Position numbers and translations under genes: made by a program
Part shown: piece by piece, positions 10,921 through 35,627 of the stretch
How positions within the stretch are numbered: the first letter of the stretch is position 1
How the letters are laid out: each line of letters opens with the position of its first letter
The notes under the pieces: generated by a model
What the model saw: the letters and a program-made list of their open reading frames with translations, nothing else
Database searches by the model: none
What the model was told of the DNA's origin: nothing
Virus record (IMG/VR): IMGVR_UViG_2844443253_000007
Source: a virus
Lineage: Duplodnaviria > Heunggongvirae > Uroviricota > Caudoviricetes
Reading direction: 5' to 3' (one strand)
DNA: 48,088 nt

Positions 10921-11307
10921 CTCAATCTGTTATCCGGGGCTATATTCCTCACGCGCCAGCAAAATCTGGCGTCGGGATTGGCGTCCCGGATGTTTACGGA
11001 GCGATATGAGACGCGCCCGCGTCTTTTTTCATATCGTTTGCACAGTCACATTCGCGATTTATGGCGGGCTGTGTGGGGGAGCCGAAAGGCTCGCCGGTTT
11101 CCGTACCCGGTTACGCCAACCCTGCACAGTTCGCCACCAGTTCGATTGGCGTCGTCGGTGGCGATAATTTCCAAATGTACGGAGTTATCGTTATGACCAC
11201 TCAAATCTCTGTTGAAACTCTCTCCCCGATCACCCATAACCAGTGAGGTAGCCTGAGTTTAACGGACACTCCTTCCTGAAATAGAATGGCATCAGAAGGA
11301 GCTAATA

Positions 11308-11610
11308 ATGAGCAGAAAAACCCAACGTTACTCTAAAGAGTTCAAAGCCGAAGCTGTCAGAACGGTTCTTGAAAATCAACTTTCGATCAGTGAAGGCGCT
11401 TCCCGATTATCCCTTCCTGAAGGCACTTTAGGACAATGGGTTACCGCCGCCAGAAAAGGGCTCGGTACTCCTGGTTCCCGCACGCTGGCTGAACTGGAAT
11501 CTGAAATTCTGCAACTGCGTAAGGCGTTAAATGAAGCTCGCCTTGAGCGAGATATATTAAAAAAAGCAACAGCGTATTTTGCACAGGAGTCGCTGAAAAA
11601 TACGCGTTAA
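11308..11610 (+). CDS. IS600 OrfA
   Basis: Identical to other copies. Confidence 0.9.
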   Translation: MSRKTQRYSKEFKAEAVRTVLENQLSISEGASRLSLPEGTLGQWVTAARKGLGTPGSRTLAELESEILQLRKALNEARLERDILKKATAYFAQESLKNTR

Positions 11611-11645
11611 TCGAACAATGGCGACAACAATTTCCCATTGAAGCG

Positions 11646-12464
11646 ATGTGTCAGGTATTTGGTGTATCCAGGAGCGGTTATTACAACTGGGTACAGCATG
11701 AACCCTCAGACAGAAAACAAAGTGATGAGCGGCTAAAACTGGAGATTAAGGTGGCACATATCCGCACTTGCGAAACATATGGAACCCGGCGGCTCCAGAC
11801 GGAGCTGGCAGAGAATGGCATCATCGTTGGTCGTGACCGACTGGCACGTCTTCGTAAGGAGCTGAGGCTACGCTGTAAGCAGAAACGCAAGTTCAGAGCG
11901 ACTACGAACCCGAACCACAATCTGCCAGTTGCGCCAAATCTGCTGAACCAGACGTTCGCTCCTACAGCACCAAATCAGGTCTGGGTGGCGGACCTGACGT
12001 ATGTTGCCACACAGGAGGGATGGTTGTACCTCGCTGGCATCAAAGATGTTTATACGTGTGAAATTGTCGGCTACGCCATGGGAGAGCGCATGACAAAAGA
12101 GCTGACAGGTAAAGCCCTGTTTATGGCGCTCAGGAGCCAGCGCCCACCTGCCGGGCTAATCCACCACTCTGATCGAGGTTCACAGTACTGCGCATACGAT
12201 TACCGGGTCATACAGGAGCAGTCTGGTCTGAAAACATCAATGTCGCGTAAAGGTAACTGTTACGACAACGCTCCGATGGAAAGCTTCTGGGGAACGCTGA
12301 AAAATGAGAGCCTGAGCCACTATCGTTTTAATAACCGGGATGAAGCCATCTCAGTAATACGGGAATACATTGAGATTTTCTACAATCGTCAGCGTCGTCA
12401 CTCTCGTCTGGGGAATATCTCCCCGGCAGCCTTCAGGGAAAAATATCATCAGATGGCTGCTTAA
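11646..12464 (+). CDS. IS600 OrfB transposase
   Basis: Near-identical to other copies (one R to C substitution). Confidence 0.9.
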   Translation: MCQVFGVSRSGYYNWVQHEPSDRKQSDERLKLEIKVAHIRTCETYGTRRLQTELAENGIIVGRDRLARLRKELRLRCKQKRKFRATTNPNHNLPVAPNLLNQTFAPTAPNQVWVADLTYVATQEGWLYLAGIKDVYTCEIVGYAMGERMTKELTGKALFMALRSQRPPAGLIHHSDRGSQYCAYDYRVIQEQSGLKTSMSRKGNCYDNAPMESFWGTLKNESLSHYRFNNRDEAISVIREYIEIFYNRQRRHSRLGNISPAAFREKYHQMAA

Positions 12465-13111
12465 AAAAAGAACAAATGGTAGTGTCCGCTATTGCCAGTA
12501 CACCTCACAGATTCCTGTTATTACCACCGAACTTTTGGCGCAGCTTTACGGCACTGAGCCGGTGCGTATTCGCCAGAATCATCATGAGAACAAAGTACGC
12601 TTCGTTGAAGGGAAACACTTTTTCAAAGTTGTTGGTAATGACCTTAAAGAATTGCGGGTCGCTTTAAACTACTCACAAAATCCAGTTTCACCCAAAGCCC
12701 GCTCCCTCATCCTCTGGACAGAACGAGGCGCAGCACGCCACGGCAAAATGCTCGAAACCGATCAGGCGTGGGATGTGTTCGAAAAACTGGAAGACTGCTA
12801 TTTCAGTCAAAGGGATCCGTCAACGCCAGTTTCATGCCAGAAAAGTTACGACACGCGAGTTCTCTGTTATCAGAGAGGCGGTGTCACTGTTTCCACAATT
12901 CAGTTACGGGATGATGATATTGTTATTTCCCTTGAGTCATGGCTGGAACTGGCGAGAGCCAATGGTTGGTTTGTTGTTCGCAGAGATAAACTGGTGGAAA
13001 GGTTGATGCAGCTTTAAAAAAGTTCTTGCATTTTTGCACATAAACTGCTTCAATTACGGTAAGCTTCGCAAAGCTGTATCGCGAGGCGAATAGCAGACAT
13101 GGACACTTGAA

Positions 13112-13138
13112 AGAACCCGCTTTATGCGGGTTTTTTTG
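13112..13138 (+). terminator. Rho-independent terminator
   Basis: GAACCCGCTTTATGCGGGTTTTTTTG. Confidence 0.6.
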
Positions 13139-13225
13139 TGCCTGAAAAATGGCACAGGGCGTTAAACGCGCTGGTGGTCAGATGAGTTTGCAGATGTGAT
13201 GACATATGGTTATTATTCTGCCTCC

Positions 13226-13302
13226 GGCCCTTTAGCTCAGTTGGTCAGAGCGAGCGACTCATAATCGCCAGGTCGCTGGTTCAAGTCCAGCAAGGGCCAC
13301 CA
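13226..13302 (+). tRNA. tRNA with anticodon CAT (Ile2/lysidine-type or Met)
   Basis: Cloverleaf with acceptor GGCCCTT/AAGGGCC, anticodon loop CTCATAA, TPsiC GGTTCAAGTCC, CCA end; resembles ileX/ileZ-type. Confidence 0.8.
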
Positions 13303-13303
13303 A

Positions 13304-13380
13304 CCACCACTAGCTCATCCGGATAGAGCATCAACCTTCTAAGTTGACGGTGCGAGGTTCGAGTCCTCGGTGGTGGGCCA
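13304..13380 (+). tRNA. tRNA-Arg (anticodon TCT); unusual acceptor stem beginning with C
   Basis: Anticodon loop CTTCTAA, TPsiC GGTTCGAGTCC, acceptor CCACCAC/GTGGTGG, CCA end. Confidence 0.7.
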
Positions 13381-13382
13381 GC

Positions 13383-13458
<76 letters not shown>

Positions 13459-13461
13459 TAT

Positions 13462-13536
<75 letters not shown>

Positions 13537-13650
13537 TGACCTTTCTTAAAGTACTCCAACCTACTGAATCCTAAGGGATACGGCTTTAAGCCTCCTTGCA
13601 GAGTTACTTACTGTAACCCACTGTGTAACCCTCTCAGGGCATGCAGACAT

Positions 13651-15255
13651 ATGATTCAGCTATCCAGTAGTCACAAACTTCCAGCAGTCTACTATCTCTA
13701 CCAGCGTAACGGCGTCTACTACTTCCGTCTTAGGGTCAGACAATCAAACAATGATAGAATGACCTCAATATCATTACGGACCAAGGATAGACGCACCGCT
13801 ATGGCTTACTCAAGGCACATAAAGGCAGCACTCAAGGCAATACACGCAGACAGACCCAACGCTACCTATGAGGAAATGAGGGAACACCTTAAGGACATCG
13901 CTGAGTGTGAACTGTCTATGGGCCGTTCAGATCTCTTTGAGCCTGACATGAGGGATATCTACCGGGACCAATACGGAGAACTTGGTGAGAGCCTTACCGA
14001 TGCTCTGGCTAGTGAGCCGCTAAGCATTGACCAGCATCGTTACATCAATGAGGCCCTGAAGGTGCTAAAAGCCTGTATGAGGCGTATCGAAGCGGGAGAC
14101 AGTCAGCCTCTGATAGATTACGTCGATCTTTTTAATGATATTGATAGGCAAGATAACCAAGCAGACTCTGTGTCCCTATCTGTTAATGCTCCAGAAGTAA
14201 AACCAGAAGTTACGCCTAGCATTACCATAGCGAGCCTCTTTGAACAATACGAAGCGGAGAACTATCAGAACTGGAAGCCTGCAACCTTAAGGGAAAACAA
14301 GGCGTCACACGCTGCGTTAATCGAAATATTCGACCATCTGGGTCTCAATGCAGACGCTAACAGGGCTGACATGCTTAGGGTCCGTGATGTGCTCCAGCAG
14401 TTACCTAGGAACCGTAAGCAGCGCTTCAAGGATGTCCCACTTGCTGACCTGTTGAGCCGTGAAGATAAGACAGATTGTCTGGATGTCGTTACCATCAACA
14501 ACAAGTATCTTATTAAGATGGCTGCTGTCTTTAGGTGGGCTGTGCGCAATGACTTGATTAAAAAGAACATGACTGAGGGTCTGGAGCTTAAAGTCCCTCA
14601 GCGTAAAGCCTCAGGGGCCCGTAACGCCTTCTCTACGGAGCAGGTGGGGCAACTACTGGTCGCAGCTAAGGCATACTCTCAGAAGACCTCTGGTAAGCCG
14701 TATCATTATTATGTTACCGCCTTGGCTGCTATCACTGGGGCGAGACTCAATGAAATAGCCCAACTACAGGTCAAAGACGTCAGGACCACTGAGGCGGGAA
14801 CCGTTTATATTCATATCAATGAAGACGATAGTAGTCTACCCGGTAAGAGCATCAAGAACGCTCATAGTGACCGCTGTGTGCCTCTGGTCGATGGGGCCTA
14901 TGGTTTTATATTGGCTGACTTTATGGCGCTTGTAGAGACCCGTAGAGGCGCTGACGGTGATGACGCTATGGTGTTCGATGGTCTGCGTCTCATGAAGAAC
15001 GGTTACGGTGAGCAGGTGAGTAAATGGTTTAATCGGACGTTGTTGCCTAAAGTCCTCGTAGACCGTAGCGGCTTAGCGTTTCACTCGTTTAGACATACAG
15101 TTGCGGCCCAGTTAAAACAACATGGGGTCGAGTTGGCGTATGCACAGGCGATCATGGGGCATAGTTCAGGGTCTATTACGTACGACCGTTATGCTAAAGA
15201 GGTCGAGGTTGATAGGCTGGTCAATGTGATGGCTGATGTTTATAAGGAGACCTAG
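13651..15255 (+). CDS. int: Tyrosine recombinase / integrase (534 aa) adjacent to tRNA cluster
   Basis: C-terminal catalytic signature (R in ITGARLNE, HSFRHT, final Y in ITYDRY); N-terminal arm-binding-like domain. Confidence 0.85.
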   Translation: MIQLSSSHKLPAVYYLYQRNGVYYFRLRVRQSNNDRMTSISLRTKDRRTAMAYSRHIKAALKAIHADRPNATYEEMREHLKDIAECELSMGRSDLFEPDMRDIYRDQYGELGESLTDALASEPLSIDQHRYINEALKVLKACMRRIEAGDSQPLIDYVDLFNDIDRQDNQADSVSLSVNAPEVKPEVTPSITIASLFEQYEAENYQNWKPATLRENKASHAALIEIFDHLGLNADANRADMLRVRDVLQQLPRNRKQRFKDVPLADLLSREDKTDCLDVVTINNKYLIKMAAVFRWAVRNDLIKKNMTEGLELKVPQRKASGARNAFSTEQVGQLLVAAKAYSQKTSGKPYHYYVTALAAITGARLNEIAQLQVKDVRTTEAGTVYIHINEDDSSLPGKSIKNAHSDRCVPLVDGAYGFILADFMALVETRRGADGDDAMVFDGLRLMKNGYGEQVSKWFNRTLLPKVLVDRSGLAFHSFRHTVAAQLKQHGVELAYAQAIMGHSSGSITYDRYAKEVEVDRLVNVMADVYKET

Positions 15256-15343
15256 AGGAGACCATAGTCTAGGATGACACTTACTACAGACCTGTGTGGT
15301 CATGTTTTTGACTCATAGTTTTCTCTACTTGTCAAGGGATAAT

Positions 15344-15366
15344 TAATACGACTCACTATAGGGAGA
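15344..15366 (+). promoter_or_regulatory. T7-type promoter, exact 23-bp consensus TAATACGACTCACTATAGGGAGA (predicted +1 G at 15361)
   Basis: Exact match to the T7 RNA polymerase class III promoter consensus. Confidence 0.9.
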
Positions 15367-15463
15367 AGGGACACAAAAAGTTTTCTCTTCTAGGATGACA
15401 CTTACTACAGACCTGTGCGGTCATGTTTTTGACTCATAGTTTTCTCTGCTTGTCAAGGGGTAA

Positions 15464-15486
15464 TTAATACGACTCACTATAGGGAG
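15464..15486 (+). promoter_or_regulatory. T7-type promoter, exact 23-bp consensus (copy 2)
   Basis: Exact match. Confidence 0.9.
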
Positions 15487-15583
15487 AAGGGACACAAAAA
15501 GTTTTCTCTTCTAGGATGACACTTACTACAGACCTGTGTGGTCATGTTTTTGACTCATGGTTTTCTCTACTTGTCAAGGATAA

Positions 15584-15606
15584 TTAATACGACTCACTAT
15601 AGGGAG
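15584..15606 (+). promoter_or_regulatory. T7-type promoter, exact 23-bp consensus (copy 3)
   Basis: Exact match. Confidence 0.9.
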
Positions 15607-15630
15607 AAGGGACACAAAAAGTTTTCTCTT

Positions 15631-16004
15631 CTAGGACAACTAACCGTAACTTATCGCATCCTTTCAGGGGCGGGATGACCAATTACAGACACCAAGCGTT
15701 CTACTTAAAGTGAATGCTTCCTGTGTGCTCTGGGTCAGTCGATAAGTGAATAGCAATAAGACACAATCATCTTAATTATGGTCTCTAGTCCCTACAGGGG
15801 CTTAACTTAAAGTTAACTTAAAGACACAATTAAAGATTAACTTATAGTATTACTTAAAGTTAACTTAAAGACACAATTAGAGATTAACTTTAAGTATTAA
15901 ATAAAAGATTTAATTAAAGACCAATTAAAGATTAACTCTAAGGGAATACCTTAAGGGGTGATGATATTTATAATAATCAATCACCAAACCTATAGGTCTT
16001 CTCT
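15631..16004 (+). repeat. AT-rich non-coding region with reiterated CTTAAAG / TTAAAGA motifs (T7-group left-end / origin-like)
   Basis: Units such as cttaaagttaacttaaagacacaattaaagattaactta repeated; no ORFs. Confidence 0.7.
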
Positions 16005-16076
16005 TGAAGTGGCACACTGAATTTGGCCACCTGAACAGAGGTGATATGCTCACCTCAGAACAACACAGGTGCTCCA

Positions 16077-17245
<1,169 letters not shown>

Positions 17246-17253
17246 CCACTTCA

Positions 17254-17480
17254 TCTAGGGTCTCTCTATAGGTCTTCTCTATGGTCTCTCTATAGGTCTC
17301 TCTAGGGTCTCCTCTAGGCATTACCCCCAGAAGCTAACTCTATGGCCCTCTATGGTCCTCTATGGCCCTGTACGTCATTCTTTAGGATGCCCTGTAGTTT
17401 CGTATAGCCTGATGCCTAGAGAGACCCTAGAGAGACCCTAGAGTGGCTCCTAGAGAGACCCTCCCAGTAGCTCCGCACAG
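17254..17480 (+). repeat. Short direct repeats TCTCTATAGG / CTATGGCCCT / CCTAGAGAGACC (T7-group genome-end-like)
   Basis: Reiterated 8-12-bp motifs, non-coding; continuous with 15631-16004 region once IS911 is removed. Confidence 0.65.
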
Positions 17481-17622
17481 CTACATCGTCATCATCATAG
17501 TATTCAATCTCAAAGTCATTCTGTTTGCATCCTGTTGTCCTGCTGGTCTCCCTTCGCTTGGGGACTTTGAGTAGGTCAGTGGGGGTGCGACTTCAGGGTG
17601 CAAACAAAAAGGAAATCAAGCG

Positions 17623-17778
17623 ATGTCTCAACAACCACAACAACCACAACAAGAAATCAGCATCATTAACCTCGACCAGCTTGTGTCCATGACCTCAGTT
17701 GAAATTGCTGAGCTGACAGGCAAGGAGCACCGAAATGTCCTTCGTGATATTCGTAAGATGCTCGAAGAACTTAACGCG
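17623..17778 (+). pseudogene. Rha-family phage regulatory protein, N-terminal fragment truncated by IS1
   Basis: TSVEIAELTGKEHRNVLRDIRKML matches Rha/antirepressor N-terminal motif; ORF runs into IS1. Confidence 0.7.
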
Positions 17779-17833
17779 GGTAATGCTGCCAACTTACTGA
17801 TTTAGTGTATGATGGTGATTTTAAGGTGCTTGC

Positions 17834-18109
17834 GTGGCTTCCATTTCCATCAGATGTCCTTCCTGCTCCGCTACTGAAGGCGTGGTGCGTAACGGCAAAA
17901 GCACTGCCGGACATCAGCGCTATCTCTGCTCTCATTGCCGTAAAACATGGCAACTACAGTTCACTTACACCGCCTCTCAGCCCGGTAAGCACCAGAAAAT
18001 CATTGATATGGCCATGAATGGCGTCGGATGTCGCGCCAGTGCACGCATTATGGGCGTTGGCCTCAACACGGTTTTACGTCACTTAAAAAACTCAGGCCGC
18101 AGTCGGTAA
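17834..18109 (+). CDS. insA: IS1 InsA
   Basis: Repeated ORF. Confidence 0.9.
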
Positions 18110-18531
18110 CCTCGCGCATACAACCGGGCAGTGATGTGATTGTCTGCGCTGAAATGGACGAACATTGGGGCTACGTCGGTGCTAAATCACGTCAGCGCTG
18201 GCTGTTTTACGCGTATGACAGGATACGGAGGACGGTTGTGGCGCACGTCTTCGGTGAACGCACTCTGGCCACACTGGAGCGTCTTCTGAGCCTGCTGTCG
18301 GCCTTTGAGGTCGTGGTATGGATGACGGATGGCTGGCCGCTGTATGAATCACGCCTGAAGGGAAAGCTGCACGTTATCAGCAAGCGTTACACTCAGCGCA
18401 TTGAGCGACATAATCTGAATCTGAGACAACATCTGGCAAGGCTGGTACGGAAGTCACTGTCGTTCTCAAAATCGGTGGAGCTGCATGACAAGGTCATCGG
18501 GCATTATCTGAACATAAAACACTATCAGTAA
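18028..18531 (+). CDS. insB: IS1 InsB
   Basis: Repeated ORF. Confidence 0.9.
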
Positions 18532-18546
18532 GTTGGAGTCATTACC

Positions 18547-19497
18547 AAAAAAAGCAACAGCGTATTTTGCACAGGAGTCGCTGAAAAATACGCGTTAATC
18601 GAACAATGGCGACAACAATTTCCCATTGAAGCGATGTGTCAGGTATTTGGTGTATCCAGGAGCGGTTATTACAACTGGGTACAGCATGAACCCTCAGACA
18701 GAAAACAAAGTGATGAGCGGCTAAAACCGGAGATTAAGGTGGCACATATCCGCACTCGCGAAACATATGGAACCCGGCGGCTCCAGACGGAGCTGGCAGA
18801 GAATGGCATCATCGTTGGTCGTGACCGACTGGCACGTCTTCGTAAGGAGCTGAGGCTACGCTGTAAGCAGAAACGCAAGTTCAGAGCGACTACGAACCCG
18901 AACCACAATCTGCCAGTTGCGCCAAATCTGCTGAACCAGACGTTCGCTCCTACAGCACCAAATCAGGTCTGGGTGGCGGACCTGACGTATGTTGCCACAC
19001 AGGAGGGATGGTTGTACCTCGCTGGCATCAAAGATGTTTATACGTGTGAAATTGTCGGCTACGCCATGGGAGAGCGCATGACAAAAGAGCTGACAGGTAA
19101 AGCCCTGTTTATGGCGCTCAGGAGCCAGCGCCCACCTGCCGGGCTAATCCACCACTCTGATCGAGGTTCACAGTACTGCGCATACGATTACCGGGTCATA
19201 CAGGAGCAGTCTGGTCTGAAAACATCAATGTCGCGTAAAGGTAACTGTTACGACAACGCTCCGATGGAAAGCTTCTGGGGAACGCTGAAAAATGAGAGCC
19301 TGAGCCACTATCGTTTTAATAACCGGGATGAAGCCATCTCAGTAATACGGGAATACATTGAGATTTTCTACAATCGTCAGCGTCGTCACTCTCGTCTGGG
19401 GAATATCTCCCCGGCAGCCTTCAGGGAAAAATATCATCAGATGACTGCTTAAAAAAAGAACAAATGGTAGTGTCCGCTATTGCCAGTACACCTCAGT
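18547..19497 (+). mobile_element. IS600, 3' partial copy (~951 bp; first ~325 bp including most of orfA missing)
   Basis: Begins at A-run inside orfA 3' end; ends with IS600 right terminus ...CACCTCA. Confidence 0.9.
18634..19452 (+). CDS. IS600 OrfB transposase (no orfA upstream)
   Basis: Near-identical to other copies. Confidence 0.85.
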   Translation: MCQVFGVSRSGYYNWVQHEPSDRKQSDERLKPEIKVAHIRTRETYGTRRLQTELAENGIIVGRDRLARLRKELRLRCKQKRKFRATTNPNHNLPVAPNLLNQTFAPTAPNQVWVADLTYVATQEGWLYLAGIKDVYTCEIVGYAMGERMTKELTGKALFMALRSQRPPAGLIHHSDRGSQYCAYDYRVIQEQSGLKTSMSRKGNCYDNAPMESFWGTLKNESLSHYRFNNRDEAISVIREYIEIFYNRQRRHSRLGNISPAAFREKYHQMTA

Positions 19498-19498
19498 A

Positions 19499-19848
19499 AT
19501 CCATCCAGGCCTGTTGTTGCAGAGCTTGGCGATGATTCAGGCTGGCATTTTTTCAGCCAGAGAAACCCGGATAACAGCATAGTGTTCACTGTTAACGGAC
19601 AGGTAATTCCGTTAAATTACGGAAACTTCGATGCCCGCTATAAATATCGAACAGAGGGGGTACAGGATGTACGGTATGGCCATGAAATGTATTACAGCCC
19701 CGGCAGTAACACCGTTTCGTGGAGATTTTGCGCACCTTCGGGACACGGGCTGTCAGGGATGGCGATATCGGATACCGGCCGTAACTCAGCGGATAACGTT
19801 GACGGTGTGTATTACCGACCACTGCAAAAACTGATTAATGGCACCTAG
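19499..19848 (+). pseudogene. Phage tail fiber protein, C-terminal fragment (5' part removed at IS600 junction)
   Basis: ORF track protein begins inside IS600 end; C-terminal fiber-like sequence followed by tail fiber assembly gene. Confidence 0.55.
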
Positions 19849-19871
19849 TATAACGTAGCGAGTATTTAACA

Positions 19872-20416
19872 ATGTTGCATTTAAAAAATATTACTACGGG
19901 TAATCCGAAAACAGCAGAACAATATCAGATGACAAAACGATATTCGGTCACCTGGCTTTTTTCAGAAGACGGAAAAAACTGGTATGAAGAGCTGAAGAAT
20001 TTCGCCAGGACACAATTAAAATAACTTACACCGGAGACGGTCGCGTGGTGTGGGTCGGTAAGGATGTGACAGGCATTGAACCCCGTAACGCCAGTGTTAT
20101 TGAAGTTCCTGATATTACCGCCAACCGCCGCATTACCGCGCCGGGTTACTGGTTTTACCGCAATGATGAATTTGTCTTTGACTACAGACTCAAAGCGGAA
20201 GATGAGCGTGATGCCCTTCTGGCTCAGGTCAGTGCCCGGACAGGGGAATGGGAAGAAGACCTGCTGCTGGGGTTAATCAGCGACGAAGATAAAGAAAAGC
20301 TGAAAGCCTGTCGTATTTACGCGAAATCGCTGCAGGCGATGGATTTCAGCACCATCACTGATAAATCCTCATACAACGCCATTGAATGGCCCGCCTCTCC
20401 GGAAGGTTCTTCCTGA
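19872..20416 (+). pseudogene. Tail fiber assembly protein, frameshifted near 20000
   Basis: N-part [19 protein letters not shown]... stops at 20024; C-part continues in another frame and ends with IEWPASPE typical of Tfa. Confidence 0.65.
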
Positions 20417-20439
20417 TTTAATTTATCGCGAGAAAAACA

Positions 20440-21354
20440 ATGTCTGTAGTGATATCAGGTGCGCTGACTGATGGCGCAGGTATCCCCATGTCCGGATACC
20501 ATATTATTCTGAAATCCCGGGTAAACCCCCCGGAAGTGGTGATGAACACTGTTGCTGATGTGATGACAGGAAACGATGGTGAATACTGTTTCCATGCGCG
20601 GACTGGAAAATATGGTGTGTATCTGAAACAGGACTGGCGCAACGAGTACAACGTTGGCGACATTGCTGTATATGAGGACTCAAAGCCCGGCACGCTGAAT
20701 GACTTTCTGATTGCTCCTGATGAGGGCGACCTGAAACCGGATGTCGTCAAACGCTTTGAGGAAATGGTGGCGCAGGCGCAGCAGAGCGCCGGGGCCGCAG
20801 CCGGAAACGCACAGCAGACGGCGCAGGATGTGGCGGCAGCCGCAGGTTATGCCCGCGCAGCAGAGCAGGCCAAAAATGACATTGATGCTGCGCTGACCGG
20901 CACTCTGAAAACGGCTAACCATCTGTCTGAAATCGCAGCAGCAGGCGAAAAGGCACAACAGAAGTCCCGGGATAATCTGGGGCTGAAAAGTGCGGCCACG
21001 ATGGAAGCACAGAGCGACATTTACGACCGGACAAAAGGCCGTCTGGCGATACCCGGCGCATTCGGCTTTGGGTGTGCTTTTCTGCCTGAAGATGTTATCC
21101 GTTTTGACACTAAGAGTGATTTCCTGGCCTGGGTAAGGAATGCGCTGCCAGGTGAATATTCCGTTGCTGGCCCCTACGGCATCATCATACCCGACACACG
21201 GTTTGAAGGGGTGCTCAGCATCCGGTGGACTGATGCACGCCCTGAGACAACAGAACCGCGGTACAGAGCCAAATCCCTTACTTTTTACGGCATTAACGGC
21301 CCCATTTATCACACCCGCTACCGCTACTGGCCCATATCCAGACTGACTGGGTGA
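20440..21354 (+). CDS. Phage tail fiber protein (N-terminal conserved type)
   Basis: 304 aa, Ala/Gln-rich central region typical of side tail fibers. Confidence 0.6.
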   Translation: MSVVISGALTDGAGIPMSGYHIILKSRVNPPEVVMNTVADVMTGNDGEYCFHARTGKYGVYLKQDWRNEYNVGDIAVYEDSKPGTLNDFLIAPDEGDLKPDVVKRFEEMVAQAQQSAGAAAGNAQQTAQDVAAAAGYARAAEQAKNDIDAALTGTLKTANHLSEIAAAGEKAQQKSRDNLGLKSAATMEAQSDIYDRTKGRLAIPGAFGFGCAFLPEDVIRFDTKSDFLAWVRNALPGEYSVAGPYGIIIPDTRFEGVLSIRWTDARPETTEPRYRAKSLTFYGINGPIYHTRYRYWPISRLTG

Positions 21355-21704
21355 AAATAAATATAACCACAGAAGATATTATTTACAGAATCGTGGCGAG
21401 CTCTGTCCGCAACAGATGGGGAGACCCTGACATTGGCGGGCTGATTATTGCTGCGTACCAGGGAGAAGCTGACGGTGATAAAGTCATCAGACTTGTCAGG
21501 GGGCAGTCATACAGAGGCTCACGACTGGGACCGGTGGGGATTTCAGTGCCCAGTACTCCCACCGGAACGTATATAGCATCCCCACAATTTTTCATTACGG
21601 GATGTTCAGAGCATTCATTACCGGGGTCATATTGCGCCCTGTCCGGGGTGCCGGATGCTCATGTCTCTGGCGCAATGCCCGGGCTTTTTATTCGCACATC
21701 GTGA
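21351..21704 (+). CDS. Tail-fiber-associated hypothetical ORF (possibly remnant of fiber C-terminus)
   Basis: GTG start overlapping upstream stop; region from 21538 is duplicated at 41736. Confidence 0.4.
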   Translation: MKINITTEDIIYRIVASSVRNRWGDPDIGGLIIAAYQGEADGDKVIRLVRGQSYRGSRLGPVGISVPSTPTGTYIASPQFFITGCSEHSLPGSYCALSGVPDAHVSGAMPGLFIRTS

Positions 21705-21713
21705 GGAATGCAC

Positions 21714-22278
21714 CGTGGAAATTAAAAAAATCATTAATCCCCGTTATACCGAAAGTGGCGCAGTAGACTGTGACGTTTTTTTTGACGACAGGGACCAGGC
21801 AGTCCCCTACACAGCCACCGCTGATGATGTCGCTCCGACGGGTCAGCAAATCTGGCAGGAACTGCAAAGCGGCAAATGGGGTGAGATAGCCCCATTCACT
21901 GTGACACCAGAAATGCTGGAAGCGGCCAGAGAGGCCAGACGTCAGGAAATTGAAGCATGGCGCGCAGAACAGGAGGCGAAGCTGTTCACGTTTGAATGGA
22001 ACGGTCGTATCTGGAATGCTGGTCCCGACTCACTGGGCCGCCTGTCCCCGGTAGTCATGCTGGCAAAATCTGTCACAGCACAAACACATATGGCGTGGAG
22101 CGATGCCGATAATCAGCAGGTGAAACTGTCGATGCCGGAACTGGAAGAACTGGCGGCAGCAATGGTGCAGGCGCAGGTCGATCGCAACGATGAGATTTAT
22201 CGCCGTCAGCGGGAGCTGAAGGAAGAGCTGAATAGTCTGAAGGATTTGAATTCGGTTAGGAATTTTATCGTGGAATAA
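21714..22278 (+). CDS. Tail fiber assembly protein (Tfa-like)
   Basis: [25 protein letters not shown]... typical Tfa N-terminus; GTG start; second diverged copy at 41911-42475. Confidence 0.7.
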
Positions 22279-22478
22279 CAGAAGCTGCGGCACGTCGTAT
22301 GCAGGAACGTGCCGCGGTTGGCTGGTAAACTTTCGATAGTGCGAGTATTGAATGATTTCTAGGCGTTATCGATTTTACGTATTTTTTGCATGATAGAATT
22401 CGTACCTCCTCCCAACGACCTTCCATGGCTTTCCGGACTTCTGTAGGCTGGCGGACGATGCTGTCCTCGGATGTTGTG

Positions 22479-23336
22479 CTAATTGGGTGATAACAGATCC
22501 TGTGTATGGGCGTTTCCCTTTGTGCGTGCGTTGATGCTGGTAACGGTAAACGTCATGATGAACACGACCGCGAATAAGACGACAATCGTCGGAGCTGGTG
22601 CGCTGTCGATAAAAAAGGACAGCCAGACACCAGTCATTGACACTATTACCGATATGCCAGTCGCCAGTAGGAGCGCAATATGAAAGCGTTGTGTCAGGAG
22701 TACTGCAATGGCGCCAGGCGCAATGAGCAGAGAAATAGAGAGAATGATACCTACTGCTTTCAGCGTCGCCACAATGGTCAGGGAAACCATGCACAGCAGC
22801 CCATAATGCAGCCATCTCGTATGCAAACCGCTTACCTGCGCCTGTTGATAATCAAAGCTGAACAGCAAAAAATCCCGCCATTTTACGCTAATAACAAGTG
22901 TAACCAGCCCGGCAATAATCACCGTCTGGATTATGTCGCCGATGGTTATCCCGAGCATGTCGCCGAAAAGAATATGGTCAAGATGTACGTCTGGTTTAAT
23001 TGCAATATACAAGATCAGACCTGCGGCAAACATGCCAGAAAAAACAATCCCCATAACTGTATCTTGCTTGATTCGGCTGTTGTCTTTCAGGTATCCCGTC
23101 GCCACCGCGCAGAATACTCCGGCGACGAATGCCCCTGTAGCCAGAGGTAACCCCAGAATCCAGGTAAGCACGATGCCAGGAAAAACCGCATGACTCATCG
23201 CGTCACCCATCAGTGCCCAACCTTTCAGGACCAGAAAGACCGACAGCAGCGCACAGGGTATGGAAACTACCAGTGAAATCAGCAGTGCGTGACTCATAAA
23301 GGTGAACTGCAGTGGCTCCAGTAATAATGCCATCAT
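22479..23336 (-). CDS. sitD: Mn/Fe ABC transporter permease SitD
   Basis: 285-aa polytopic membrane protein, last gene of four-gene operon. Confidence 0.85.
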   Translation of the reverse strand: MMALLLEPLQFTFMSHALLISLVVSIPCALLSVFLVLKGWALMGDAMSHAVFPGIVLTWILGLPLATGAFVAGVFCAVATGYLKDNSRIKQDTVMGIVFSGMFAAGLILYIAIKPDVHLDHILFGDMLGITIGDIIQTVIIAGLVTLVISVKWRDFLLFSFDYQQAQVSGLHTRWLHYGLLCMVSLTIVATLKAVGIILSISLLIAPGAIAVLLTQRFHIALLLATGISVIVSMTGVWLSFFIDSAPAPTIVVLFAVVFIMTFTVTSINARTKGNAHTQDLLSPN

Positions 23337-24190
23337 GAGCGATCCTCCAGCGCTTTATGCGCACGCCGACGATTTGCCAAAAGTCCATGGGTGGGCGCAA
23401 ATACAAATGCTAAAAGAAACAGCAGTGTCTGCGCCACCACGATGATTCCACCTGTCGCGCCGTCCAGAAAGTAACTGACCCACGCGCCGAGGAAACTGGT
23501 TACACTGCCAATAGTTACAGCAATTATGAGCAGGCGGGGAAAACGATCGGTTAACAACCATGCTGTTGCACCGGGAGTCACCACCAGACAGATCACCAGA
23601 AAGGCACCAACCGTTTGCAGCGCCGCAACGGTCGAAACCGACAGCAGGGTGAAGAAGAGGATTTTTAATCTGCCCGGATGTAATCCAATAGCACGGGCGT
23701 GATTCTCGTCGAAAAAGGTCACCATAAGATCTTTCCATTTGAAAAAAAGCACGATGATCGAGAGAATGCCAATGATAGTGAGTTGCAGGATATCCGCCGG
23801 ATCGATTGCCAGAATATTGCCCAGGACGATGGTCTGAATGTTCACGGATGTCGGGTTCAATGACACCATAAACAGCCCCAGGCCAAAAAAGGACGAGAAG
23901 ATCAGGCCGATGATGGCATCTTCTTTTAAGCGGGTGCGTTGGTTAAGAAACAGCATGCTGCCCGCTGCCAGTCCGCCGGAAAAGAAGGCTCCCAGAGAAA
24001 ACGGAAGCCCCAGCATATATGCCCCCGCAACACCCGGGACAATAGAGTGCGACAGCGCATCGCCAATCAGCGACCAGCCTTTTAGCATCAGATAGCATGA
24101 CAGGAAAGCGCAGAGACCGCCGACCATTGCCGAGACCCACATCGCATTGAGCATATATTCATAGCTGAAGGGTTCCAGTAGCACGTTCAT
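23333..24190 (-). CDS. sitC: Mn/Fe ABC transporter permease SitC
   Basis: 285-aa membrane protein, overlapping start/stop with neighbours. Confidence 0.85.
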
Positions 24191-25014
24191 CTTGCTTCCC
24201 TCTGCACCGCTGACGGTCGATGTGCCACAAAAGGGCGTTCATCGTCAGTAATAATGCTTTCTTCCGAGCCGTTAAGTGTGACATGGCGCAGTACGCCGCT
24301 AAAAGCCAGCTCCAGGTTCTCGGCTGTAAAAGTGGTGTCTGTCGGCCCGCTTGCCAGGACGGTGCCTTTGACCATGACCGTATAATCGCAAAATGTCGTG
24401 ACTGAGCCGAGATTGTGCGTTGAGACAAGCATCGTTTTGCCTTCCGCGCGTAACTCCCTCAACAGGCTGATGATTTTCGCTTCGGTTTTCACATCAACGC
24501 CGGTAAAAGGTTCATCCAGCAGGATCACATCACCCTGCTGTGCAATTGCTCTCGCCAGAAAGACGCGTTTCTTTTGTCCACCGGAAAGCTCGCCGATTTG
24601 ACGATGGCGAAAATCCACCATATCGACACGTTCCAGCGCATCGGTGACAATCTGACGATCCCTCTTTTTGGCTATACGCAACATACCCATATGCCCATAG
24701 CGGCCCATCATCACCACATCTTCCACCAGTACAGGAAATGACCAGTCAACCTCTTCTGACTGAGGGACGTAGGCAACCAGGTTTTTCTGTAGCGCCTGTC
24801 GCGTGGGAATACCCAGAACAGATATCTTTCCGCTGGTCAGACGCACAAATCCCATAATCGCTTTAAACAACGTCGATTTTCCGGAACCGTTTACCCCAAC
24901 CAGAGCGGCAATAGATCCACTTGGTACTGTGAAGGATGCATCGCGCAGTGCTGTGTGCCCGTTACGCCAGGTGACAGTAACATCATTAACGACAATGCCT
25001 GCAGATTGCATCAT
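24187..25014 (-). CDS. sitB: Mn/Fe ABC transporter ATP-binding protein SitB
   Basis: Walker [13 protein letters not shown] signature LSGGQKKR, Walker B ILLDEP. Confidence 0.9.
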
Positions 25015-25928
25015 TATTTCTCCCTTTTCCCGGCTTTAATTCCCTGTACCAGCGTACTGGTAGTAACCTTAAGAAGGTCGATATACGTAGGTACCGGGCC
25101 GTTTTCTGTGCTCAGGGAATCGACATAGAGCACACCGCCGTAGTGTGCGCCGGTTTCACGCGCAACCTGACGCGCTGGTTTATCGGAAATCGTACTCTCG
25201 CTAAAGACTGCCGGGATATGATTTTTCTTAACTATATCAACAACCTTACGTACCTGCTGCGGTGTTCCTTGTTGATCGGCATTAATCGGCCACAGATAAA
25301 GCTCTTTTAGCCCCAAATCGCGTGCGAGATAAGAAAAAGCCCCTTCACTGGTGACCATCCATCGCTGATTCTCAGGGAGTTCCGTAATCTGCTTACGCAG
25401 GGGGGCAAGGGTTTGGGTAATCTTGGCTTTATAAGTATCGGCATTACGTTGGTAGGTTTGTGCATTTGCCGGATCGTATTTTATCAACGCATCACGAATA
25501 TTATCGACGTAAATCAGAGCATTATCTGGCGACATCCATGCATGGGGATTAGGTTTGCCCTCATAGGGTCCTTCGGTGATCCCTACTGGCGTCACACCCG
25601 AAGAGACAATTACTTCTGGAACCCCATTGAGATGCTGGTAAAAGCGTTGGAACCACAATTCCAGATTCATACCATTGGCGAGAATCAGTTGTGCCCCCTG
25701 CGCACGTTTAATATCGCCAGGGGTAGGCTGATACTCATGAATTTCTGCACCAGGCTTGGTTATGGATGAGACTTCTGCAGCATCTCCAGCCACGTTTTTG
25801 GCCATATCCGCGATGATGGTAAATGTTGTAATGACCTTGAATTTTTCAGTTGCACTTGCCTGAAATGCGATCGAGCAGGTGAGGGCGAGGCACCCCAAGA
25901 GCATGGTTACTTTTTTTATTGAGTGCAT
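25014..25928 (-). CDS. sitA: Periplasmic Mn/Fe-binding protein SitA
   Basis: Signal peptide plus metal-binding SBP fold; operon order sitABCD. Confidence 0.9.
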
Positions 25929-25960
25929 AATTTAGTACCTATAGTGAGCAAAATTAGAAC

Positions 25961-25982
25961 AAACATAGCAACGGCTATGTTT
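25961..25982 (-). promoter_or_regulatory. MntR box upstream of sitA
   Basis: Perfect palindrome AAACATAGC-AACG-GCTATGTTT. Confidence 0.75.
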
Positions 25983-26002
25983 TATAGCATAACCTATACA
26001 AA

Positions 26003-26023
26003 ATGAAAATAATTATCATTAAC
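26003..26023 (-). promoter_or_regulatory. Fur box candidate upstream of sitA
   Basis: GTTAATGATAATTATTTTC (minus strand) resembles GATAATGATAATCATTATC. Confidence 0.55.
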
Positions 26024-27054
26024 AGCTTTGAGGCCTAAAACAGGGATTAGGTTGTTTCCTGCTGGCGACATGATATTGAGGAAAAAAGTAGAGCAGCTAT
26101 TAGGCTTTGAAATGACTTTATGAGGAAAATTGTTGATGGCAAAAATGGGGCAAAAAAGAGTGGGTTATCGTAGCTTATTGTTGTCGCTGATAATGTTTAA
26201 CATATTGAAAAATAAATAAAATACTTATGAGTCAGATAGTTGTGATTTTTGCCCTTACTTGTTCAGGTTGTATTGTTCTTTCTTTGTAATTTGTTGATTT
26301 TCTTGCATTATTTCAGTTCTCTGGTACTAAATGGGGCAAATTGGGGGCAAACTTTGCAACTACGATAACCGCGCATTCAACATGGCTATCTGTTCGTCGT
26401 TCATGTCATCAATCCACATACCGTAAATTTCATACACCATTTGCGCAGTTTCATGCCCCATCTGGCTGGCTATAAATGCCGGGTTCGCTCCTGCCGTCAA
26501 CAGCCAGCAGGCAAAAGTATGTCGCGTATGGTACGGATTACGGCGGCGAATACCAGCACGTTTTACTGCTGCATTCCATCTTGTACCCAAACTGCTTACC
26601 GAGTAATAAGGTTTCTGTTTTTCGTTACACACCCTGGGCATGAAAACAAAATGCAGTTTTTGTTTTTCAGTTCTGCCGTACTCCCGATGATAAAAAGTGA
26701 TTTCGCTTTTGCGATGATGCCCGGTCAGTTTGTATTGCTCCTTCAGTGCTTCAAGAGCCGGCTGCAGTAATGCTACCGTCCGGATCCCGGCATTTGTTTT
26801 TGGGGGACCGAACATATCAAGTATCGTCAGGTTTCTTCTGACATTCACAATTCCCTTCTCGAAATCCACATCCTCCCACGCCAGAGCTGCCAGTTCCCCG
26901 TGACGAAGCCCGGAGTAAACGGCAAATTTCCACAAGTTTTGGCTCTGTCCTTTTTCACTTTCCATTAATGCATTGAATTCTGTTTTAGATAACGGGTCAG
27001 GTAATGCTGCCAACTTACTGATTTAGTGTATGATGGTGATTTTAAGGTGCTTGC

Positions 27055-27330
27055 GTGGCTTCCATTTCCATCAGATGTCCTTCCTGCTCCGCTACTGAAG
27101 GCGTGGTGCGTAACGGCAAAAGCACTGCCGGACATCAGCGCTATCTCTGCTCTCATTGCCGTAAAACATGGCAACTACAGTTCACTTACACCGCCTCTCA
27201 GCCCGGTACGCACCAGAAAATCATTGATATGGCCATGAATGGCGTCGGATGTCGTGCCAGTGCACGCATTATGGGCGTTGGCCTCAACACGGTTTTACGT
27301 CACTTAAAAAACTCAGGCCGCAGTCGGTAA
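27055..27330 (+). CDS. insA: IS1 InsA
   Basis: Repeated ORF. Confidence 0.9.
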
Positions 27331-27752
27331 CCTCGCGCATACAACCGGGCAGTGATGTGATTGTCTGCGCTGAAATGGACGAACATTGGGGCTACGTCGG
27401 TGCTAAATCACGTCAGCGCTGGCTGTTTTACGCGTATGACAGGATACGGAGGACGGTTGTGGCGCACGTCTTCGGTGAACGCACTCTGGCCACACTGGAG
27501 CGTCTTCTGAGCCTGCTGTCGGCCTTTGAGGTCGTGGTATGGATGACGGATGGCTGGCCGCTGTATGAATCACGCCTGAAGGGAAAGCTGCACGTTATCA
27601 GCAAGCGTTACACTCAGCGCATTGAGCGACATAATCTGAATCTGAGACAACATCTGGCAAGGCTGGTACGGAAGTCACTGTCGTTCTCAAAATCGGTGGA
27701 GCTGCATGACAAGGTCATCGGGCATTATCTGAACATAAAACACTATCAGTAA
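27249..27752 (+). CDS. insB: IS1 InsB
   Basis: Repeated ORF. Confidence 0.9.
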
Positions 27753-28155
27753 GTTGGAGTCATTACCCACCGGAACTGATTTGATGAACTATCAACGCTC
27801 TTAAATTCCCGGCCTTTTTAATGTTACTGTTAGTAATCTCCCAGCCTTTCAATGTTTCCCGACATCGTTTTCCTCGAAACATGAACCAGATGCGAATGTA
27901 TTTACCTCGAATCTCGACACCTGTTGGTAATTTAGACATATCATGAGTCTTTGATAAACTGATTTATCTTCGGATAGTTGTACCAGATAATCCCTCGCTT
28001 ACTGTCTGGCTTCCCTAAAGGAGATACTCGTTTGAAGTGGAAGCCTTCCACCCAACAGTTCTGGCGGTATGCTTCAATTTGTCTGGCACCCAGACCAGTG
28101 CGAAGCATCAGGCTGAACCGCCCCGGGTTTCCTGGAGAGTGTTTTATCTGTGAAC

Positions 28156-29038
<883 letters not shown>

Positions 29039-29042
<4 letters not shown>

Positions 29043-29365
29043 TTTTTCCAGAGGCGGTCGAACTCCGCCTTCGCAAAATAAGCGGAAGCCTGGCGAAGGA
29101 TATCGTTACTGCGGCGCAGTTCACGATTTTCACGCTCCAGCTCTTTCAGACGCTGACGTTCAGCGGTGGTGAGCCCTCCATCACCGCCCCCGGTATCCCG
29201 CTCATGCTGGCGAACCCAGACACGCAGAGTCTCCGGCGTACAGCCAATCTTTGGGGCAATGGAACAAATTGTCGCCCATTGTGAGTCATATTCGCCCTGA
29301 CTTTCCAGAACCATACGGACTGCCCGTTGACGGACTTCGGGGGAAAAACGAGTATTTTTAGTCAT
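29039..29365 (-). CDS. IS629-like OrfA
   Basis: 108-aa [25 protein letters not shown]... Confidence 0.85.
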
Positions 29366-29649
29366 CCTGTTTACCTCTTTCTCAGGAAGTTTAGTCTCCA
29401 GGATTCCCGGGGCGGTTCATTCCCAAAATGCACTTGGTTTTACACCGGAATATTCTCATCGTATCCTGCTTGTTGCGTTTCGTTTTGTGTTTGTGGATCC
29501 GGGAATGCATATTCAACGCCTTCCAGTTCAATCCATAGTGCATTACGACCAGCTTTGATTGTCGGCCAGTCCATACCTGAAGTGGCACACTGAATTTGGC
29601 CACCTGAACAGAGGTGATATGCTCACCTCAGAACAACACAGGTGCTCCA

Positions 29650-33088
<3,439 letters not shown>

Positions 33089-33093
33089 CCACT

Positions 33094-34059
33094 TCAACCT
33101 TTGATTCTTTCCCATGAGCGGGAGGTGAATGTTTTTTCCAGCAAATCAGCTTTTGCGCGTTTGGCGTCGTTACTGGTGCCCCCATGGTGCTTGTTGAGCA
33201 ACTCGATAATTTCATCAAGTGCGATTTCTTTTGCACGCTTTTCTTTTAGCCATGTCGGTGTACCGTCGTTGGCAAATAATTCACTGTTATCCCGTGAGGT
33301 ATCGATGCCGGGGTGTTCACCTCCCAGGTTAAGAGACTCGATATGAGGAAGAAAGTTTTTAAATGTTGGGTTTGAAAATACCTGTCCATCAATACGGGTG
33401 GAGCGATCTTTTAGTATTCTGGCGGTGCGCCACACCTGACCGGTTTCTATGTTCATTTGCTTCTCCATCTGGATCCGGATGGAGGGTTCATAACCGGTTT
33501 CTGTTTCTGCTTTCATTTTTATACCGGTTTTTGCCAACTGGCGTTTGCCATCATCACCTTCGAAAAAGTCATACTCATATCCTGCACGCCCGCACATAAT
33601 AATGTGCGCCTGACTGTTAACAAATCGATCGGTAAAGCGTCGCCACTCCTGTTTGAGCCACGCCCAGTCTGAAAATTCCAGTCCTCGTTTACGGTTTCGG
33701 CGTCTGGCATACTCGTCGCATAATCCGGTCCAGAAGTGACTGATGGAGTCGATGATCATTACGGAACCGCTGCTTTCCGCTTCATTAATGGCTTCAAGCA
33801 GATCAACAAACGAGCGGGTTTTTGCCGTAAATAATTCGATATTTTCCGCATCAAAGCGGGGTTTAACCCAGTCAGAGCCTGTTTCTGTGTCCAGAAACAT
33901 TACCGGGCGGTTACCACCTTCAATTCCCCGTTGCCGCATAAGCATTACCAGACCAATAGCCAGTTCGCTTGCTGTGTAGGTTTTGCCGTCGCCAGCAAAC
34001 CCCATAATTCCTGCTTTTAGATAGGCCTGTGTGTTTATTGCTCGTTGAAAAAGCGCCAT
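33094..34059 (-). CDS. P-loop NTPase (phage-associated ATPase, possibly AAA_24/Sak4-like); stop codon lies in IS911 terminus
   Basis: Walker A GFAGDGKT, Walker B-like MIIDSISH; native C-terminus possibly lost. Confidence 0.5.
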   Translation of the reverse strand: MALFQRAINTQAYLKAGIMGFAGDGKTYTASELAIGLVMLMRQRGIEGGNRPVMFLDTETGSDWVKPRFDAENIELFTAKTRSFVDLLEAINEAESSGSVMIIDSISHFWTGLCDEYARRRNRKRGLEFSDWAWLKQEWRRFTDRFVNSQAHIIMCGRAGYEYDFFEGDDGKRQLAKTGIKMKAETETGYEPSIRIQMEKQMNIETGQVWRTARILKDRSTRIDGQVFSNPTFKNFLPHIESLNLGGEHPGIDTSRDNSELFANDGTPTWLKEKRAKEIALDEIIELLNKHHGGTSNDAKRAKADLLEKTFTSRSWERIKG

Positions 34060-34064
34060 AGATT

Positions 34065-34358: not shown

Positions 34359-34423
34359 CTGAGGTAGCCTGAGTTTAACGGACACTCCTTCCTGAAATAG
34401 AATGGCATCAGAAGGAGCTAATA

Positions 34424-34726: not shown

Positions 34727-34761
34727 TCGAACAATGGCGACAACAATTTCCCATTGAAGCG

Positions 34762-35580: not shown

Positions 35581-35627
35581 AAAAAGAACAAATGGTAGTG
35601 TCCGCTATTGCCAGTACACCTCACAGG

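Follow-up and report, generated by a model that had tools for sequence, protein, structure and literature searches.

Paired tail-fibre and DUF4376 segments at the probable right ends of two related prophages, linked to sit and ipaH3, in a chromosome region of Shigella flexneri type

Exchangeable effector loci of lambdoid prophages are located after the tail-fibre genes (PMC3530523, PMC8112680), and the sitABCD operon is found at the tail end of prophage 042p3 of enteroaggregative Escherichia coli (EAEC) 042. Such right-end cargo ('moron') loci are among the closest described counterparts of the region analysed here, a stretch of 48,088 nt (IMG/VR virus record IMGVR_UViG_2844443253_000007; the window in what follows) in which a segment made of the end of a tail-fibre gene and a whole DUF4376 gene is present twice, once linked to a sit operon and once to the effector gene ipaH3. 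In the window likewise, an effector of the type III secretion system (T3SS) or a sit operon follows the last tail gene, from which it differs in strand, and precedes the attachment site. Unlike the lambdoid exchangeable effector loci, however, the carriers have a myovirus-type baseplate and phiP27-like tail genes, with no lambda tail, and the position of the cargo differs within the window, ipaH being found before a right-end element of about 100 nt and sit after it.

Chromosomal ipaH islands and a sit island of Shigella flexneri have reportedly been described by Jin et al. in 2002 and Fisher et al. in 2009. The loci of the window are the same as those described, sitABCD being located about 17-20 kb from ipaH among phage genes and insertion sequence (IS) elements. 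There is no essential difference from the known islands; what the window adds is one more IS, with a group II intron, in the interval that separates the copies, besides a 4-bp frameshift of a fibre gene that is private to this strain. The loci are ordinary and largely known already, as an annotated gene pair in well-known islands of Shigella and enteroinvasive E. coli (EIEC). As for the repeat itself, we consider it quite probable that the window is a region of a Shigella flexneri-type chromosome holding the decayed right ends of two closely related prophages, that the two copies are the surviving overlap of these ends, that short patches have been exchanged between them by gene conversion in both directions, and that larger rearrangements have taken place through IS elements.

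The two copies and their prophage contexts

The repeat was delimited by self-comparison of the window and then extended to both DUF4376 stop codons. The two copies form a single ungapped direct match of 712 bp (21537-22248 and 41734-42445), 698 positions of which are identical (98.0%), and out to the stops at 22278 and 42475 the identity is 716/742, with a start-to-start spacing of 20,197 bp. A match of such length and identity in 48 kb is impossible by chance. An earlier reading of this DNA from the sequence only had reported a segment of ~740 bp duplicated ~20 kb away, which the alignment confirms, the coordinates being right within 1-2 bases and both quoted peptide strings correct. Four of the 26 mismatches lie in the first 675 bp (99.4% identity), at offsets 444, 446, 448 and 492 (21981, 21983, 21985 and 22029 in the window), and the remaining 22 are confined to the last 67 bp (22212-22278). 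The longest perfect block has 444 bp (21537-21980), and another identical block has 182 bp. The 3' divergence that had been noticed is thus present, but it comprises only these 67 bp, plus a 5-bp cluster giving KLF versus KPL, and not the last ~100 bp. The tail repeat is one of about ten repeat families of at least 700 bp in the window, all the others being IS elements. The copies, the debris at the left boundary of copy 2 and the two cargo loci are the following.

21537-22278, plus strand: repeat copy 1, formed by the final 168 bp of the PF08400 tail-fibre gene and the whole DUF4376 gene; sit-linked
41734-42475, plus strand: repeat copy 2, same segment, ipaH3-linked; left edge ascribed to IS-mediated truncation
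41208-41733, plus strand: IS debris that bounds copy 2 on the left, composed of a 62-nt IS3-type end (41208-41269) followed by part of an IS66-like tnpA (about 41270-41733)
22479-25928, minus strand: sitDCBA, cargo of prophage 1, between the conserved right-end element and the phage/chromosome joint
42476-44640, no strand assigned: ipaH3 cassette, 2,165 bp, with the DUF4376 stop codon on its left and the conserved right-end element on its right
42655-44370, minus strand: ipaH3 (ipaHc), 571 aa, leucine-rich repeats (LRR) and novel E3 ligase (NEL) domain; begins 180 nt past the DUF4376 stop

The evidence for two prophages comes from EIEC, where the same modules are found in intact elements. In strain CFSAN029787 an intact prophage ends with baseplate genes, a fibre gene, a tail-fibre assembly gene (Tfa), a PF08400 fibre gene, DUF4376 and sitDCBA, followed by chromosomal uspF, and in strain VL40 an intact prophage with the same order ends with ipaH3, followed by pphA; several tail proteins are identical in these two prophages. 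Collinearity of the window with the sit prophage covers 19591-26155, homology stopping at 26155, and collinearity with the ipaH3 prophage covers 41734-44856, where an IS1 has been inserted, and resumes beyond it into pphA. On the chromosomal side, the genes next to copy 2 (pphA, yebW, yebV) correspond to the junction of the EIEC ipaH3 prophage. Because these modules end two separate intact EIEC prophages, sitDCBA-uspF and ipaH3-pphA, the repeat is read as the remnant overlap of two related prophages and not as a duplication, in agreement with the earlier proposal that the copies are tail ends of two different prophages. Each ancestral prophage would have ended with fibre, Tfa, PF08400 fibre and DUF4376, and then its cargo beside the attachment site, sitDCBA in one case and ipaH3 in the other. 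An IS-mediated deletion would have erased everything left of 41734 in copy 2, and it is to this IS-linked loss of the remaining tail module at 41733/41734 that the copy owes its short length. Between the two EIEC phages, homology extends at least 1.4 kb into the fibre gene, with 98% identity over 1.4 kb. Both copies are present in many complete Shigella genomes with S. flexneri source names, as found by exact-protein look-ups.

Some observations weigh against this picture. The assignment to S. flexneri rests on the names of the sources in which identical proteins are found; the interval from sit to copy 2 (26156-41733) has Rac-like early genes that are broken by at least six IS copies and may belong either to the ipaH3 prophage or to a third remnant; and mis-polishing of near-identical repeats in assemblies could mimic conversion tracts.

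Exchange between the copies and IS-linked variants

Gene conversion between dispersed paralogues of enterobacterial prophages and IS elements is characterised by short non-reciprocal patches, in both directions and with unchanged flanks, and the two copies of the tail repeat show the same pattern. The two possible chimeric DUF4376 proteins were built and sought by exact sequence, and both were found to exist in the collection, each in 37-39 blocks, complete chromosomes included. Thirty loci from complete or draft Shigella genomes (15 per copy position) were gathered via exact-protein look-ups, and offsets 444/446/448/492 of the repeat were used as diagnostic sites, with the following haplotypes.

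sit copy, GTTC: window and 10 loci
sit copy, ACCT: AE005674.2 (strain 301), CP182555, CP182546, CP178302
sit copy, ACCC: AMJT01
ipaH3 copy, ACCT: window and 10 loci
ipaH3 copy, GTTC: NXMF01, CP151323
ipaH3 copy, GTTT: CP097828, CP026772, UGYU01

The bases of the other copy are found at 3-4 diagnostic sites in 5/15 loci at the copy-1 position and also in 5/15 at the copy-2 position, the flanks, tails and cargo being unchanged. Besides the four diagnostic sites, there are 3 variable positions in the 4.6 kb copy-1 flank among 16 sequences (window and 15 loci), and the variant haplotypes are associated with lineage markers of the unique flanks and with the presence or absence of IS elements. These comparisons indicate that gene conversion of a non-reciprocal kind has carried short patches from either copy to the other in S. 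flexneri, the tracts having two end-points or more. Conversion is known here from genome comparison, and its tracts are defined by four marker sites, with a minimum of 5-49 bp and a maximum of <675 bp.

It could also be the case that the repeats do not recombine, and that the apparent conversion haplotypes are artefacts of assembly and polishing, or the result of recurrent mutation. The diagnostic sites are located 180-440 bp from the nearest unique anchor, so that short-read polishing could homogenise them, the site nearest the anchor (492) is the one sometimes left unconverted, and one draft contig with a hybrid allele turned out to be an N-joined scaffold. However, the haplotypes recur in independent assemblies (the four listed for ACCT at the sit copy and the three for GTTT at the ipaH3 copy), they are associated with markers in unique flanks and with the IS pattern, and the chimeric proteins are spread over 37-39 blocks of the collection. 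Recurrent mutation, on the other hand, cannot account for four substitutions in 49 bp that are exactly those of the paralogue, as compared to the 3 other variable positions in 4.6 kb. An origin of the haplotypes other than exchange is therefore rather unlikely, and patch-wise gene conversion is the explanation that we prefer. As a consequence of the exchange of short patches among S. flexneri lineages, single-nucleotide polymorphisms (SNPs) located within the repeat are no sound basis for phylogeny or typing.

Since the copies are in direct orientation, simple recombination between them would delete or duplicate the 20-kb interval; the inversion that had been suggested besides a deletion would not result. 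Crossover joints (the fibre flank with the 3' end of copy 2, or the IS66 flank with the 3' end of copy 1) were found in 0/30 loci, and the spacing of the copies is kept at 16.7-17.2 kb in four genomes with both loci. Hence, the idea that the repeats are substrates for homologous recombination holds as far as patch-wise conversion is concerned, but no deletion product was seen in the 30 loci. A comparison of the EIEC copies with those of the window gave no signal of homogenisation, the divergence in the repeat body being 6 versus 4 sites. A hybrid protein (P0001) on a draft S. flexneri 2a contig (UDPO01000029.1, GCA_900484595.1), in which window position 41733 is joined to 19848 with the 3' end of copy 1 and sit downstream, was considered as a duplication or circle joint and rejected, since there is a single N at both joins (7355 and 9350), which points to a scaffold or a collapsed repeat. 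This contig illustrates how the repeat can mislead assemblies, and short-read assemblies tend to collapse or mix the two copies.

The larger rearrangements of the region would run through IS copies. The window contains five copies of IS600 (one of them partial), four of IS1, two of IS2 and two of IS3-type elements, 99-100% identical and most of them longer than the tail repeat, including the following.

17778-18546, plus strand: IS1, with direct copies at 27000-27767 and 44856-45624; the pair at 17778 and 27000 brackets copy 1 and sit
11244-12507, plus strand: IS600, with direct copies at 18547-19495 (partial), 34360-35623 and 46336-47599

In strain 301 (AE005674.2) a single IS600 replaces 11244-19495, and 6,039 bp (12508-18546) are absent, which is the joint that would result if the IS600 at 11244 had recombined with the partial one at 18547. 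The segment missing from this strain carries an ORF6N gene, four tRNA genes, an integrase gene, 121-bp tandem repeats, an IS3-type element and IS1. CP026772 is without the IS1 at 44856. In addition, an IS3-family element at 29578-33096 holds a group II intron at 30340-32609, with a reverse transcriptase open reading frame (ORF) at 30996-32519 and an Rfam Intron_gpII match at 32523-32609, and the whole 3.5 kb is absent in CP034931.1; it is because of this extra element that the copies are spaced 20.2 kb in the window and 16.7 kb in CP034931.1. The importance given to the tail repeat in the first reading thus appears overrated, since longer or more identical copies of IS1, IS600 and IS2 bracket the same region and IS-linked variants are seen. 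For the stability of the sit locus, the relevant repeats are the IS copies and not the tail repeat. RecA-dependent deletions that remove sit in S. flexneri are said to have been reported by Fisher et al. in 2009.

The DUF4376 gene, its 3' end and the downstream cargo

The small genes located after a fibre gene include those of the Lambda/Mu-type Tfa (Caudo_TAP, PF02413) and those of DUF4376 proteins. Fibre activity requires DUF4376 proteins encoded downstream of the fibre genes in Alteromonas phage V22 (gp27) and in the Campylobacter CJIE1 prophage (H-fibre), while in A5 the DUF4376 protein gp9 is dispensable. The tail genes of the window that are relevant to this comparison are listed below.

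21715-22278, plus strand: DUF4376 gene copy 1, 187 aa, likely start GTG 21715 behind GAGGA at 21703-21707; PF14301, PHROG 1141
41912-42475, plus strand: DUF4376 gene copy 2, 187 aa, ORF from ATG 41852, likely start GTG 41912
20440-21704, plus strand: second tail-fibre gene, PF08400 'prophage tail fibre N-terminal'; pseudogene with a private 4-bp deletion after 21340
19872-20416, plus strand: Tfa (PF02413), canonical gene for tail-fibre assembly; a 1-bp deletion after 20008 shifts its frame
19480-19848, plus strand: first tail-fibre gene, C-terminal fragment, cut by the partial IS600 (18547-19495)

The longest ORF of copy 1, and its RefSeq-style annotation, start at ATG 21655 and give 207 aa. 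Both 207-aa ORFs match Pfam DUF4376 (PF14301) at residues 90-195, with E=1.6e-15 and 1.5e-15 and 58 bits (cut-off 25), and PHROG 1141, a tail family, aligns with residues 19-207. The true start is probably GTG 21715 (41912 in copy 2), because it is located 11 nt past the fibre stop (21702-21704) and behind the GAGGA motif, because most homologues, including phiP27 L57 and Rac-SA53 tail4, begin there (187-188 aa), and because the PHROG 1141 alignment begins at residue 19. The proteins of the two copies differ at 10 residues, 8 of them within the last 20.

The sequence-only reading had called this gene Tfa, an assignment that is not sustained. No match to PF02413 was found in either repeat ORF by a Pfam profile search, and the ORF at 20045-20416 matches that profile with E=3e-23, the real Tfa being the frameshifted gene at 19872-20416. 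A BLASTP comparison of the DUF4376 protein with the intact Tfa of EIEC gave E=0.66, with no real similarity, and no kinship of fold was found with the solved Tfa structure of phage Mu. The DUF4376 gene resembles Tfa in being a small gene after a fibre gene, with probably the same general job, but it differs in sequence and stands in the window besides a separate Tfa. It should therefore be labelled as belonging to the DUF4376 chaperone class, with the real Tfa adjacent; the role in 'assembly' ascribed to it was nevertheless right in spirit, since DUF4376 proteins have been shown experimentally to be fibre chaperones in other phages.

An AlphaFold2 model of the protein, made from 34 sequences (mean predicted local distance difference test score, pLDDT, 88), has strands at 3-11, 17-23 and 30-34, helices at 41-52, 65-87, 106-119 and 140-174, and hairpins at 91-102 and 125-139, that is, three N-terminal beta-strands and a helical body with two beta-hairpins, which fits the published description of V22 gp27 and A5 gp9 (PMC10579305). 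Foldseek searches gave no significant match of the model among solved structures, and 39 matches with E<=1e-3 among viral models (BFVD). These come from podo-, sipho-, myo- and crAss-like phages, and many carry the name DUF4376. The protein of the window has in common with V22 gp27, A5 gp9 and the CJIE1 H-fibre partner the Pfam domain, the position of the gene right after the fibre gene, a size of about 190 aa and the predicted architecture; unlike the V22 gp27 type, it pairs with an enterobacterial PF08400-type fibre, as a second pair after the canonical fibre/Tfa pair, its model has two hairpins and not one 'tentacle', and it is known from its sequence and a model. The DUF4376 gene is located directly 3' of the fibre gene, and gene order is the same in EIEC, phiP27 and Rac-SA53. 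Family membership, gene position and predicted fold make it most likely that the protein is a dedicated chaperone of the PF08400 fibre, of a class distinct from Tfa. Its N-terminal beta-strands would contact the fibre tip, while the helical body and beta-hairpins would form a trimeric cap. The PF08400 fibre gene is intact (422 aa) in CP034931.1 and in EIEC; in the strain of the window the fibre genes are frameshifted (copy 1) or deleted (copy 2), so that the DUF4376 protein is left there as an orphan without a job.

The two 3' ends and the non-coding element that accompanies them are located as follows.

22212-22278, plus strand: divergent 3' end allele 'tail1' (…ELNSLKDLNSVRNFIVE), identical in the EIEC sit phage
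42409-42475, plus strand: divergent 3' end allele 'tail2', common to the EIEC ipaHc-, ipaHe- and ipaHd-linked copies
22276-22375, plus strand: conserved non-coding right-end element, about 100 nt, copy 1, right after the stop codon; hairpin GGCACGT…ACGTGCC
44641-44740, plus strand: conserved right-end element, copy 2, displaced 2,165 bp by the ipaH3 cassette; overlaps the 3' hairpin of CssrB

Compared to tail2, there are 0-4 mismatches in the copies linked to ipaHc, ipaHe and ipaHd, and no more than 4 over the 200 bp that follow, whereas the sit-linked copies have 22 and 153, respectively. At all three loci (ipaHc, ipaHe and ipaHd) the ipaH gene is found 180 nt beyond the DUF4376 stop. Among 120 homologues the last ~20 residues form many alleles, which reassort with the N-terminal alleles. 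The diverged last 67 bp are best read, from these comparisons, as a mosaic joint, the 3' allele going with the downstream cargo and not with fibre specificity. The tail2 allele would travel with the ipaH cassette and its constant 180-nt spacer, and tail1 would be the form that accompanies sit. The diverged 3' end thus marks the joint of the ipaH cassette and gives a precise left boundary for the splicing of chromosomal ipaH onto tail modules of two morphotypes.

The divergent C-terminal tail might instead be functionally selected, for instance to tune chaperone release or oligomerisation in each phage, and not be a hitch-hiking joint. The pattern L-x-x-L-x-D-L-x-S-[IV]-R is kept amid the variation, which would correspond to coding constraint and not to decay, and the tail is helical in the AlphaFold2 model (H178-182). 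This is, in our opinion, improbable, since the tail alleles reassort freely with N-terminal alleles across the homologues and the flanking non-coding DNA changes along with the tail, as a recombination joint predicts. A still weaker case can be made for the original proposal that the ORF is a Tfa whose C-terminus sets specificity, the alleles marking prophages with different host-range modules. It is true that the gene directly follows a tail-fibre gene and that the C-terminal tail is the most variable part between the copies. Aside from the lack of a PF02413 match and the presence of the canonical Tfa upstream, however, the two repeat copies do not differ at all over the final 168 bp of the fibre gene, and the fibre genes of the EIEC phages are nearly identical; fibre contact has been placed in the N-terminal part of both Tfa and DUF4376 chaperones (PMC7882524; PMC10579305), a part that is identical in copies 1 and 2; and the tail allele follows the type of cargo across myovirus-type and lambda-type prophages. 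We hold this interpretation to be very unlikely, and the mosaic joint is preferred. Finally, an intrachromosomal segmental duplication of copy 1 giving copy 2, with no second prophage, could be supposed from direct repeats only 20 kb apart with so few differences over 675 bp, but it is most improbable, as the 3' allele and right flank peculiar to each copy have exact counterparts in two separate intact EIEC prophages, which occupy different chromosomal sites, the pphA, yebW, yebV flank of copy 2 fits one of those junctions, and the left edge of copy 2 is an IS fragment and not a duplication joint.

In the EIEC sit, EIEC ipaH3, ipaHe and ipaHd loci alike, cargo comes after the last tail gene and before the attachment site or chromosomal flank, and the cargo-free relatives Rac-SA53 and phiP27 end with DUF4376 and the attachment site. 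The carriers of sit and ipaH3 have genes for baseplate J, for hub and spike proteins and for a DUF3383 protein of the sheath type, and are therefore myovirus-type and not lambda-like. On the other hand, lambda-like prophages of CFSAN029787 and RMDEC332 end with gpJ, lom, fibre, DUF4376 and ipaHe or ipaHd. The module of PF08400 fibre, DUF4376 and ipaH ends lambda-like prophages too, and hence an end formed by host-recognition and cargo genes is common to siphovirus- and myovirus-type prophages.

The right-end element adjoins the stop codon in copy 1 and follows the ipaH3 cassette in copy 2, from which it follows that ipaH3 was inserted before the element and sit after it. The element is also found in Rac-SA53, phiP27 and Stx2 phage 1717, and across five phage contexts it is better conserved than the coding 3' end. 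In Shiga toxin (Stx) phages it is kept with only the last ~165 bp of the DUF4376 gene, a few hundred bp from attR. No covariation was found in the hairpin of the element across five phages, its sole variable stem position being uncompensated, so that evidence for RNA structure does not go beyond sequence conservation. It is conceivable, although doubtful, that the 3' end of DUF4376 and the element of ~100 nt constitute a dedicated docking site for cargo cassettes (ipaH with its 180-nt spacer, and sit) moving between phages of unrelated types (lambda-like siphoviruses, phiP27-like myoviruses and Stx phages). Were this so, the invariant hairpin would be functional in itself, for instance by serving CssrB as its terminator or 3' end, or as a site for recombination or protein binding, and would not be a passive remnant. 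The small RNA CssrB of Rfam is found at 44499-44681 (plus strand, 151.6 bits), between ipaH3 and the right-end element, its 3' hairpin being that of the element; copy 1 keeps only the 3' part of CssrB (22261-22316, plus strand, E=1.7e-4).

An IpaH protein of 571 aa, as that of the window, corresponds to class 2, ipaHc / ipaH1383 (PMC9046306). In the NEL-coding part of ipaH3 (42760-43333) there are ten clustered SNPs between the window and CP034931.1, the odd one out being the window at some sites and CP034931.1 at others. This cluster suggests an exchange of patches among ipaH paralogues; a single donor was sought among ipaH9.8, ipaHe and ipaHd, and none was found, the pattern being mixed.

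Other features of the region

Between sit and copy 2 (26156-41733) the minus strand carries Rac-type early genes, including an integrase fragment (26360-27013), gam, recE (35628-37052), kilR, ydaE and Rha/ASH (39496-40128), which are interrupted by copies of IS1, IS600, IS2 and IS3-type elements. Inside the first prophage remnant there are four tRNA genes (13226-13533), then an integrase gene of 534 codons (13651-15255) and three 121-bp tandem repeats (15268-15630). A sok/hok locus (CssrC) is found at 7819-7993, and the isrK/C4 antisense-RNA immunity region is present in two inverted copies, one per prophage remnant, at 10940-11141 (plus strand) and 39889-40077 (minus strand).

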